A stretch of 38,525 bases of DNA from Promethearchaeota archaeon (lineage in GTDB: Archaea > Asgardarchaeota > Lokiarchaeia > Sigyniarchaeales > SOKP01), in NCBI GenBank assembly GCA_016930515.1, contig JAFGGO010000050.1, forward strand, positions 1-38,525, written 5' to 3'. This document shows, piece after piece, positions 35,830 through 38,430 of this stretch. Under the pieces are notes generated by a model. It ran no database searches. It was given only the letters and a program-made list of their open reading frames with translations, and was not told where the DNA came from. A program made the position numbers and the translations under genes. Numbering within the stretch: the stretch's first letter is position 1; the number at the start of each line of letters is the position of its first letter.

Positions 35830-38430
35830 TCACAAAATTGCACCATAATAGACCTCAAAAGTGTGTCCGTAAGTTACGCCGATAGTACTCGCAGTTTGCT
35901 CAAAATCTCGATCCAATAGAACTCGGCCAGTTATTGTGGCAATGCTTATGTAATGTGCTTCTAGTTTAAGGCTATTAACGACGGACGGAAGGATCTCTCT
36001 AAATTTTTCGTTACTTTCTATTATTTGAGTTATCGTTTTTTGGTCAGTCGCCCCTACTTGCGTTTTAAAATAAAAAATCAACTGAGCGGTAGTGGATAAT
36101 TCACTATTTTTATAGAATGGTTGTTTTTCGGGCGGTCCGTGTTTTTCTTCCCAAGTACGGCAGATAAACGGTATTTGACACGCAAACCAATACCACACTT
36201 GACGGATGAAAAAATGAACAATACCAGAAGTTGGGTTCCAAATATTACCAACTATTCCCATATGATCGTGCGAAATCATGACATATTTTTTATCTTTCTC
36301 CTTCCATTCGTTTTTAGTATATATTTTACCACAATATTGCATTATTTTATCTTCAACAAACGCTCTTGGAATCGTTTTTGGATATTCGCTCGATAAAAGC
36401 ACCACAATTTCAAATCGAATTCGTGGATCAGAAATTACTAAAAGATGGCCCCTCCAGATCATATAATTGTATTTTGGATCTTTTTCAGGAACCAAAAGAA
36501 ACCAAGGTGCTCCACCTGTGGAACTACCCATTGTTTTCAGGTAATTCAAATATTGCATCATCGCAGCAATCTCCAATTTGACGCGACTTTTCCAGGCTGG
36601 ATGCCTTGGGCCTATTGTTCCTGCTTTGGAGGGAAAATTTGGGATAAAATACTCTGCTACTGTTGGCATCCAATCTCCTTTCTTGTGCCATCCTTCGACA
36701 CCAAGTTGATGACGAATTTTTCTTGCCTCTTCAAGAAGATGTTCCGCAGAAATGTTATCTTTATCATTTCCTCTAATAAGAAGACATTCTGCTAATTCTA
36801 TCATTCCTCGGGCCTCTCCAATTCGATTTTTAAGTTTCTGATCGATAGTAATTGCTTTTTTATGGTTATTAATTGCAGCATCAATATTTCCGATTACTCG
36901 ATTTAAGGATCCTATATCATTGTAACGAATTGCGATCATTTCTTGATTACCAATTTTCACTTCTAAATCTAAAGCTTCTTGATAATATTCAAGCGCTTGT
37001 TTTGGATTAGTCTTTTTACATGTATCTCCAGTTAGTCCTGTTAATTTAGCCATTAGAGCGAGATCTTTTTCTTCTCCTCTTGATTTTTCCATATTCAAAG
37101 CAGTTTTGAATTTCTTCAAAGCAATATCGTCCATCCCATATTTTTGATCTATAATACCAAGAGTCATGAGCGTCGATACTTGAATAATGGGATTTTTTAA
37201 TTTTTCACCTATATCTGAAGCTTGAAAGAGAGGATATTTTGCAGCAGCCATCTCACCTGTCTGAATCAATAATTTTCCTTGATTAATTAATGCCATTGCT
37301 AAAGGAAATCCCCCTGGATCGCTTCTTTTTGTTAATGATATTATCCTATTTTGTATTGGAGCTGCTAAACTAAATCGATTGTAATTAATAAAAAGGTTTT
37401 CTACAAAACGGAGTGCACTAATTTCATTAGGTGGTTCGAAATGTGTATCTAACCATAGTTCGATAGGAATAGTATTATCTCCTTTTGATTTATCTAATTG
37501 GTTGTCTATTGTGTTGGGAAACATCATTCTTAAAATTTCAAGTGTTTGTCCTTGAACGAGTCTAACAGGTATATCTATTCTCTCTCCAATATTTCTTAAT
37601 AGTTCAAAAATATCCCTGGATCCTTGTTTAGGGATTTCATCCTCCTCTAATTGAAGAATTTCTCTTGGATTTAAAATTAAAGGTTTTTTACCGTCTCTAT
37701 CACTGTGATGATCAATCCATATTAAACCAACAAGACCATCCATTCGAGATAGTTCAGGCATTATATCAAAATCGTCTCCTCCACCATATCCCATTACAAT
37801 TAATATCCTCCCTTCGTCGATCTTTTCGAATAAATGACGCTGATAAAGAGGTAATGAAAATATTTCTTCTCCGGGAGCTTTATCTTTAGAAAGTGCATCC
37901 AATGTAGTTTTGATGCTATTTCGTGTCTTTTTTCCCGTGAAATAATTAATAGGAGATCCGTGGATTTTATAAACACGGTATTGATTTAATTTTGAATCTG
38001 GATCTTGATATTGAATAAAATCTTCGGGAGTTATTACTGCGATTCTGGAATATTCTGAATTAATTTCAATATTACTCAAGGCATGCTCTATTAAACAATC
38101 GAAATTAGTTGTTAGAACAAGATCTCCCGAAATAATCCGGTTAGCTAAAAATTGATGCAATGAGTTTGGTAATACATTCTCTTGTACGAAATAATCCATC
38201 AATTTTAGTTTAGGATCTATTTGATCCCGCCATTCCTGTATAACTCTTTCATAACGGAGCTCCTTAAGTGATAAAAGATCGTTCTCGAATTTTAGAGCAG
38301 AAAAATGTATTATAGCTGAGATGATTCGATGAACTGAAGCCAATCCTGCCGGTTTATCAACAGAGATTCCCGCTCCAACTAACCAAGTTATTGATCTTGA
38401 TGAAATCAGATCTAATATTTCATCATTCAT
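35830..38430 (-). CDS. SIR2-like NADase - TPR - UFC1-like E2 - UFM1-like fusion protein
   Basis: SIR2 motifs LVGAGIS, TTNFD, KIHGS and MGYGGGD (aa ~15-240). TPR helices at aa ~340-580. UFC1-like domain at aa ~596-756. UFM1-like beta-grasp at aa ~784-866. Confidence 0.85.
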   Translation of the reverse strand: MNDEILDLISSRSITWLVGAGISVDKPAGLASVHRIISAIIHFSALKFENDLLSLKELRYERVIQEWRDQIDPKLKLMDYFVQENVLPNSLHQFLANRIISGDLVLTTNFDCLIEHALSNIEINSEYSRIAVITPEDFIQYQDPDSKLNQYRVYKIHGSPINYFTGKKTRNSIKTTLDALSKDKAPGEEIFSLPLYQRHLFEKIDEGRILIVMGYGGGDDFDIMPELSRMDGLVGLIWIDHHSDRDGKKPLILNPREILQLEEDEIPKQGSRDIFELLRNIGERIDIPVRLVQGQTLEILRMMFPNTIDNQLDKSKGDNTIPIELWLDTHFEPPNEISALRFVENLFINYNRFSLAAPIQNRIISLTKRSDPGGFPLAMALINQGKLLIQTGEMAAAKYPLFQASDIGEKLKNPIIQVSTLMTLGIIDQKYGMDDIALKKFKTALNMEKSRGEEKDLALMAKLTGLTGDTCKKTNPKQALEYYQEALDLEVKIGNQEMIAIRYNDIGSLNRVIGNIDAAINNHKKAITIDQKLKNRIGEARGMIELAECLLIRGNDKDNISAEHLLEEARKIRHQLGVEGWHKKGDWMPTVAEYFIPNFPSKAGTIGPRHPAWKSRVKLEIAAMMQYLNYLKTMGSSTGGAPWFLLVPEKDPKYNYMIWRGHLLVISDPRIRFEIVVLLSSEYPKTIPRAFVEDKIMQYCGKIYTKNEWKEKDKKYVMISHDHMGIVGNIWNPTSGIVHFFIRQVWYWFACQIPFICRTWEEKHGPPEKQPFYKNSELSTTAQLIFYFKTQVGATDQKTITQIIESNEKFREILPSVVNSLKLEAHYISIATITGRVLLDRDFEQTASTIGVTYGHTFEVYYGAIL

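Follow-up and report, generated by a model that had tools for sequence, protein, structure and literature searches.

What might a UFC1-like E2 domain be doing near the end of an archaeal SIR2 protein when the residue expected to carry its chemistry reads Ser instead of Cys? The question is raised by a gene on contig JAFGGO010000050.1 of a Promethearchaeota archaeon (assembly GCA_016930515.1; Lokiarchaeia, Sigyniarchaeales), a stretch of 38,525 nucleotides that was analyzed as a whole ("the window", which is the entire contig) and that comes from a metagenome-assembled genome (MAG) estimated to be 94% complete with 5.3% contamination. The gene lies on the minus strand at 35830-38430, where the first ATG opens an open reading frame (ORF) of 866 amino acids (aa), while the region upstream of it is cut off by the contig end (38525). 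According to the ORF list, its translation, and Pfam, the encoded protein is laid out as SIR2, tetratricopeptide repeats (TPR), a UFC1-like E2 domain carrying the Ser, and a UFM1-like tag, and a full-length word-indexed search returned the protein itself as the sole match.

The answer favored here, for which we would put the chances somewhat above even, is that the E2-plus-tag tail is a non-catalytic module through which a SIR2 effector would bind or bait partners or have its assembly controlled. The module most likely transfers nothing and would instead act as a folded, non-covalent E2-plus-tag unit, because a Ser stands at the position of the Cys, the tag lacks its terminal Gly, and no matching E1 or protease was found in the genome.

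Ser720 and the Family It Departs From

On the minus strand, the codons atg att tcg cac gat cat atg spell M-I-S-H-D-H-M (sequence context: KKYVMISHDHMG), and the TCG triplet at 36273-36271 (feature 36271-36273) encodes Ser720, which reproduces the reading of the first-pass annotation of this DNA directly; TCG is two substitutions away from either TGT or TGC. The rest of what is a C-H-[D/E]-H active-site motif in the relatives, His721-Asp722-His723 (36262-36270, minus strand), is kept in full. The domain around it covers residues ~595-767 (36130-36648, minus strand), as delimited by the Pfam and genome-level UFC1 matches, a profile search, and a homologue model; the interval 36163-36645 that had originally drawn attention corresponds to residues 596-756 and is indeed E2-like.

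Using residues 590-775 as the query, an exhaustive phmmer search retrieved 31 cluster representatives, to which a profile search added further members, all of them from Asgard lineages, and the resulting family alignment held 58 sequences (eight from related genomes). The Ser720 column of this alignment is occupied by Cys in 48 of the 58 members, by Ser in two, and by something else in eight, with YVMICH[D/E]HM as the consensus, so the ICHDH-like motif that had been expected of the homologues is what 48 of them display in the form C-H-[D/E]-H. In a set of 23 Cys-bearing members, this is the one Cys column without any variation, and the His following it does not vary either. The eight members with neither Cys nor Ser (Y, A, N, D, D, A, and two gaps) no longer have the H-[D/E]-H stretch either, whereas H-D-H is retained in both Ser variants.

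The other Ser variant, P0016 (513 aa, from a metagenomic contig), reads LSHDHLG at this site and consists of an E2 domain followed by leucine-rich repeats; neither an E1 nor a JAB gene was found on its 8-kb contig. This hints at a link between Ser variants and fusion to repeat domains, the repeats being leucine-rich in P0016 and TPR in the window protein. A single origin of the two could not be taken as established, as the quick tree that was built neither joins them nor excludes it, and one further candidate member of the family, P0028 (1862 aa), was discarded as a false positive built of InlB B-repeats.

The window E2 has a branch length of 0.78 in the quick tree, which is above the family median (0.4) and nevertheless within the range seen for several Cys-bearing members (0.62-2.11), the eight degenerate members having branches of 1.16-3.04. 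Together with the fold-defining invariants (W, G, YP..P, W, W), all of which are kept in the window E2, this branch length suggests that the fold is still being maintained. Thioester chemistry at the Ser720 site is, judging from the sequence, lost. The earlier proposal that the surrounding motifs and the UFC1-like fold persist while the thioester chemistry does not is thereby borne out, with H-D-H kept and Ser standing at an otherwise invariant Cys.

Assignment to the UFC1 Branch of E2s

The Pfam UFC1 model (PF08694) matches the protein at residues 602-757 (profile positions 11-149 of 155) with an E-value of 3e-4 and 20.9 bits, which is just below its cut-off of 25, and the same model scored 25.8 bits, above the cut-off, in a six-frame search of the genome. 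When a profile of the whole family was compared to the PDB, 26 distinct sequences were matched (E 4e-8 to 5e-6), every one of them a UFC1 and none of them any other E2. The window domain by itself had no phmmer matches in the PDB, and the UEV, RWD, and UQ_con models of Pfam had none in the protein at E-values up to 1. A profile restricted to the C-terminal half, where the active site lies, failed to detect UFC1, so it is mainly the N-terminal half of the family that ties it to UFC1 by sequence.

For the fold itself, the window E2-plus-tag region folded without an alignment yielded a mean predicted local distance difference test score (pLDDT) of 33 and was not used; the model was made of P0033 rather than of the window protein, P0033 being a natural tag-E2 fusion that is 55% identical to the window E2 (49 alignment rows). 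This model reached a mean pLDDT of 93.5 and a predicted template modelling (TM) score of 0.90. Its top 29 PDB matches by Foldseek were all UFC1 (target-normalised TM 0.63-0.75), and VIA-align likewise put UFC1 on top (Z 17.0 and 16.6), with Pex4p as the next E2 (Z 9.3). By profile and by modelled fold, the family is therefore specifically UFC1-like.

The family Cys column very likely corresponds to Cys116 of UFC1, because it is the only invariant Cys of the family and because, in the confident model, it is found at the end of a hairpin strand before a short helix (C225 of P0033 directly follows the second strand of the hairpin, 219-224, and precedes the helix, 227-232). Sequence alignments with HMMER and hhalign are anchored on both sides of the site, Y-C-G-K-I-Y pairing with K-T106-A107-K108-M-Y of UFC1 and D-H pairing with the D-H after Cys116. 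Between these anchors, however, the hairpin is longer here, and the stretch is gapped and of low confidence, with Cys116 placed one to three residues upstream of the family Cys. The original statement that Ser sits at the catalytic Cys of UFC1 thus holds as regards the invariant Cys column of the family, whereas the residue-level match to Cys116 is not settled by sequence.

In UFC1, the usual HPN motif is replaced by TAK, which contributes to the oxyanion hole (PMC12032130). No HPN motif is present in the window E2 either, and by sequence alignment (HMMER to UFC1 9gli, and hhalign) Cys700-Gly701-Lys702 (36325-36333, minus strand) is the putative counterpart of T106-A107-K108, the Lys alone being identical. 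The C700 position is occupied by Cys in ~35 of the 58 members, most of the Cys-active ones included, and by S, T, or A otherwise, with P0016 having Ser. The Cys of the CGKIY motif had been put forward as an alternative, compensating nucleophile, an idea that finds no support, since this residue aligns with T106 of TAK, is common in Cys-active members, and is Ser in the only other Ser variant.

Where the Cys-Bearing Relatives Reside

All seven of the genomic contexts examined for Cys-bearing members (two metagenomic ones and five from related genomes; the context of one more member, P0022, was too short to use) have the E2 beside a UBA5-like E1 and a JAB protease. In the first metagenomic context, a ThiF E1 is followed by a Prok-JAB protease and then by a tag-E2 fusion, and in the second, the E1 and JAB genes lie on one strand and an 83-aa tag ORF together with a stand-alone E2 on the other, while the five contexts from related genomes have the E2 directly adjoined by an E1 of 50-70% identity and a JAB of 38-47%. 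Examples of this Asgard E1/JAB/tag/E2 cassette, in our own contig labels, are L016:3877-6810, L017:4407-8564, G012:C36:36451-39398, and G028:C6:731631-734586. The best PDB relative of the operon E1 is UBA5 (E 3.5e-52), the next being MoeB (2e-29), and a conserved protein of ~360 aa with a C-terminal zinc ribbon recurs in the cassette contexts. The Prok-JAB protease of the cassette is ~400 aa long, and a Band_7/SPFH protein was seen in one case.

The first-pass annotation had allowed for the case that active homologues would also carry Ser; this does not apply, as the operon-encoded homologues all carry Cys, and neither does its other refuting condition, a structural alignment that would place a different Cys at the catalytic position. 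Asgard Ufm1 homologues have been published (PMC12962969), and a 2023 survey had UFC1 in eukaryotes only (PMC10183829). Five genomes from the same genus were all without the E2 family, and only 10 of 61 relatives had it.

The Fused Tag and Its Missing Glycine

The C-terminal beta-grasp tag domain takes up residues 783-866 (35833-36084, minus strand, 3' of the E2 domain) and was recognized by a tag hidden Markov model (HMM), by hhalign, and by a six-frame search. The HMM, built without the window sequence, matches residues 782-864 (E 4.9e-14), hhalign relates the domain to the operon tags with a probability of 96.7% (E 3.7e-10), and the six-frame search of the genome recovers it with an E-value of 5.8e-12. 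The tag follows the E2 after a linker of ~15 residues, an order reversed relative to that of the tag-E2 fusions, and the E2-tag tail as a whole amounts to 272 residues of uninterrupted reading frame.

The protein ends in ...FEVYYGAIL, after which comes a TGA stop (35830-35832) at the alignment position of the conjugating terminal Gly of the tag; the free-standing tag P0059 ends in ...FEVIDQGIVG and then stops. As read from these sequences, the window tag breaks off one residue before the conjugating Gly and has no C-terminal Gly that could be exposed.

Calling this tag "UFM1-like" is plausible, yet not proven, given how the evidence from modelling falls out. The N-terminal tag domain of the homologue model is a beta-grasp fold whose best Foldseek TM is to UFM1 (5hkh_C, 0.85, root-mean-square deviation 1.8 A), and VIA-align, run on the same domain, lists generic ubiquitin-like domains on top (Z ~10). 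The Ufm1 model of Pfam does not match the tag domains, and a tag profile compared to the PDB by sequence returned nothing significant.

A complex model of the E2 and tag domains of the window protein scored 0.62, the best control scoring 0.29, and the mark applied to such models is one that 58 of 80 solved complexes and 2 of 110 mismatched pairs reach; at least 70% of the contacts are shared between the runs, with a partner pLDDT of at least 82. The predicted interface involves E2 residues 631-643, 665-668, and 746-766 and neither S720 nor C700. The complex model supports non-covalent binding between the two domains, and the predicted interface may reflect likeness to UFC1-UFM1 only, because solved UFC1-UFM1 structures exist.

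Partners Sought in the Same Genome

In the window's own genome, at its 94% completeness, neither E2 nor tag was found a second time, and the operon JAB query had no match. A cognate UBA5-like E1 was not found there with the operon queries either, the matches reaching only 28-37% identity; the two best ones are partial and come from C26 and C71, two contigs on which canonical UQ_con E2 genes are present as well. E1s of the ThiF family number four in the genome. On a further contig (G000:C121:7956-9191, minus strand), a 568-aa open frame with two weak UQ_con matches (E 1.3e-4 and 0.028) may be another case of an E2-like domain inside a larger protein.

The SIR2-TPR Half and the Genomic Surroundings

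The N-terminal part of the protein is a SIR2_2 domain (residues 1-260; 37651-38430, minus strand), delimited by Pfam PF13289, which matches residues 104-220 with 29.2 bits (cut-off 24.5), and by an alignment of relatives. Set against 12 Asgard SIR2-TPR relatives, the protein has all of the invariant SIR2 residues: VGAG.S (18-23), PN..H (88-92), TTNFD (107-111), K..HG (155-158), and GY..DDFD (214-222). A TPR array follows at residues ~345-590 (36661-37398, minus strand), as indicated by the Pfam models TPR_12 and TPR_MalT (matches at ~345-577). The N-terminal 585 residues belong to an Asgard SIR2-TPR family of ~65 cluster representatives from several Asgard phyla, the C-termini of which are variable (mostly TPR, in one case WD40). 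The same genome has at least five more full-length SIR2-domain paralogues (G000 contigs C139, C43, C130, C7, and C115) that are 35-45% identical and have open frames of 588-1056 aa. Across Asgard phyla, the members of this family are annotated merely as "tetratricopeptide repeat protein".

PADLOC gave weak SIR2-domain matches, the best being ThsA (E 1.2e-5), with no DSR model matched; no defined defence system was fitted by it, nor were partner genes seen within the contig, from which the upstream side of the gene is missing. Convergent with the gene, at 30169-34773 of the window (plus strand), lies a gene for a 1534-aa SMC_N/AAA protein that matches the PADLOC mad3 model (E 2e-49) as well as those of LmuB, JetC, and AriA, all of which would match a true SMC too. 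Between this SMC-like gene and the 3' end of the SIR2 gene, a 151-aa ORF with an HNH_3 motif (E 4e-6) is found at 35152-35607 (plus strand), and the area of the SMC-like and adjoining HNH genes could be a defence island. Farther away, at 27844-28797 (plus strand), a Gtr1/RagA-type GTPase (Pfam E 1.5e-28) is encoded, a eukaryote-signature protein typical of Asgard genomes.

What the Tail Might Be For

In the favored reading, an E2 domain and its cognate UFM1-like tag would have been copied out of an Asgard UBA5/JAB/UFM1-like/UFC1-like operon, and the pair would have been attached to the C-terminal end of one protein of the multi-copy Asgard SIR2-TPR family, with both conjugation handles apparently gone in the window copy (the Cys changed to Ser, and the tag one residue short of its Gly). 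What is left may bind a partner or hold the protein in its "off" or "on" state, i.e., serve as a sensor, bait, or assembly module, and the intact SIR2 domain would then provide the output, either by NAD+ consumption or by ADP-ribosylation. The domain identities, the Ser at the family Cys, the lack of the Gly, of the E1, and of the JAB, the intact SIR2 motifs, and the expansion of paralogues are what the computations show; a module without catalysis, its regulation of SIR2, and a part played by the protein in conflict or immunity are inferred from them, the immune role being suggested by analogy.

The tail might also be an integrated decoy, a dead proto-UFMylation pair wired to a SIR2 NADase, to which a viral factor attacking or hijacking the tagging pathway would bind and thereby elicit NAD+ depletion; we regard this as rather unlikely. 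If true, archaea would have an equivalent of the integrated decoys found in the nucleotide-binding leucine-rich repeat receptors (NLRs) of plants, and a UFM1-type pathway would for the first time be tied to immunity in the closest relatives of eukaryotes. The first-pass annotation had offered a pseudo-E2 decoy and a stably charged trap side by side. Its decoy or binding-module half is still the best fit to a tag without Gly in a genome with no cognate E1 or JAB found, and the same observations weaken its E1-charged trap.

Several points weigh against the favored reading, some of them in favor of a Ser720 that is still at work, a possibility that the first-pass annotation had not taken up. The H-D-H following the Ser is intact in both Ser variants, as a still-catalytic Ser would predict, and is degraded in the eight other Cys-less members, and the E2s of the bacterial Bub systems do work through an invariant Ser with a nearby His and Asp, having earlier been predicted to be inactive (bioRxiv 10.1101/2024.11.21.623953). 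Ser720 could accordingly be the nucleophile of a Ser-type E2 passing the tag via an oxyester, aided by His721, Asp722, and His723 in the manner of Bub and charged by one of the four ThiF-type E1s of the genome or by an unassembled or foreign E1, and the moderate branch length would be in keeping with that. Moreover, at 94% completeness of the genome, and with the contig breaking off upstream of the gene, the partners could be unassembled; no orthologue of the fusion was available in which selection at codon 720 might be measured; and the suggested immune role draws on analogy with SIR2 defence proteins, the PADLOC matches being weak (E ~1e-5) and pointing to no defined system. A working Ser-type E2 is, however, a minority prospect in our estimation, as Cys is the norm of this family and Ser occurs in 2 of 58 members, unlike the invariant Ser of Bub, as operon E1s pair with Cys-type E2s, and as neither a cognate UBA5-like E1 nor a JAB nor a free tag was found in the genome, the fused tag being without its terminal Gly.

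That same lack of a cognate E1, JAB, or free tag, together with a tag in cis that has no Gly, also bears on a stable oxyester trap, in which an E1 would charge Ser720 once and the lasting adduct would serve as a signal or a tag sink: engineered Cys-to-Ser mutants of E2s do give long-lived oxyesters (bioRxiv 10.1101/2024.11.21.623953), and the active-site surroundings are kept here, but even one-shot charging needs a pathway that is absent from this genome, which makes the trap highly improbable. Hardly more convincing is an evolutionary relic, a recently captured and decaying tail in which Ser720 and the lost Gly would be neutral damage. The uniqueness of the architecture (the full-length search returning only the protein itself), the absence of the E2 family from the five same-genus genomes, and the loss of both chemical handles would all be in keeping with such a relic, and yet the frame is open over 272 residues, the fold-defining invariants are kept, the branch length of 0.78 compares with 1.16-3.04 in the degenerate members, and a confident inter-domain interface is predicted, so that a relic seems quite improbable. 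As for an assembly or consensus error concealing a true Cys codon, the sequence does come from a single contig of a MAG with 5.3% contamination, but TCG is two positions off TGT and TGC, the independent P0016 has the same Ser within the same SHDH, and the lost terminal Gly points the same way, leaving such an error exceedingly unlikely.

The Ser as such is a modest surprise, and the value of the case is in its context, i.e., in a proto-UFMylation pair, a UFC1-like E2 and its tag, that has found a second use as a module of a SIR2-TPR protein and is changed at both of its conjugation handles. An E2 in which Ser has naturally taken the place of Cys, with the adjoining His-Asp-His untouched, also provides a clean test: either the Ser oxyester chemistry described to date in bacterial Bub systems arose in archaea as well, or E2-plus-tag pairs are recruited as non-catalytic sensors. 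Either answer would inform how ubiquitin-like machinery and immune effectors were paired before eukaryotes.

Comparison with Known Systems

Eukaryotic UFC1 (PF08694; PDB 2z6o, 3kpa, and 7nw1) is resembled by the window E2 domain in its predicted fold, in the extra N-terminal helix and long C-terminal helix, in the lack of HPN, with C/S/T-G-K of the family aligned to T106-A107-K108, and in the D-H after the nucleophile position. Unlike UFC1, the window domain has Ser at the nucleophile position, a longer hairpin before the active site, and a place inside a SIR2-TPR protein, in a genome where no UBA5-like E1 or free UFM1-like tag was found. Another close system is the Asgard UFM1-type cassette, with which the tail shares both its E2 family (28-55% identity) and its tag family (HMM E 4.9e-14); the cassette E2s, in contrast, have Cys, and the cassette tags end in or run into ...VG, both features being altered in the window, where the order is E2 then tag, within a SIR2-TPR protein and with neither E1 nor JAB.

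The UEV-type pseudo-E2s (Mms2/Uev1a and TSG101/Vps23) combine an E2 fold devoid of the catalytic Cys with non-covalent binding of ubiquitin-like proteins, and, by analogy, it is these that the window E2 domain most likely works like. What they share is the E2 fold lacking a catalytic Cys; the window domain nonetheless comes from the UFC1 branch and not from the UEV sequence family, and the residues around its lost Cys are kept. The likeness to the bacterial Bub E2 (BubB), seen by sequence alone, is that of a Ser at the nucleophile site accompanied by His and Asp (H335 and D299 in Bub), but the Ser of Bub is family-invariant and comes with a Tyr E1 and a DUF6527 protease, whereas the window Ser is a rare exception within a Cys-type family and counterparts of those two partners were not found, and BubB is without the C-terminal helices that are present in the window domain.

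As for the other half of the protein, DSR2 is described as a SIR2 domain joined to a helical-repeat region (PMC11850899). The defence sirtuins (DSR2, the SIR2 of ThsA, and SAMD9-type SIR2-TPR proteins) resemble the window protein in having an N-terminal SIR2_2 domain with intact invariants followed by helical repeats, the family being multi-copy, and differ from it in that the C-terminal E2-plus-tag module has no counterpart among them.

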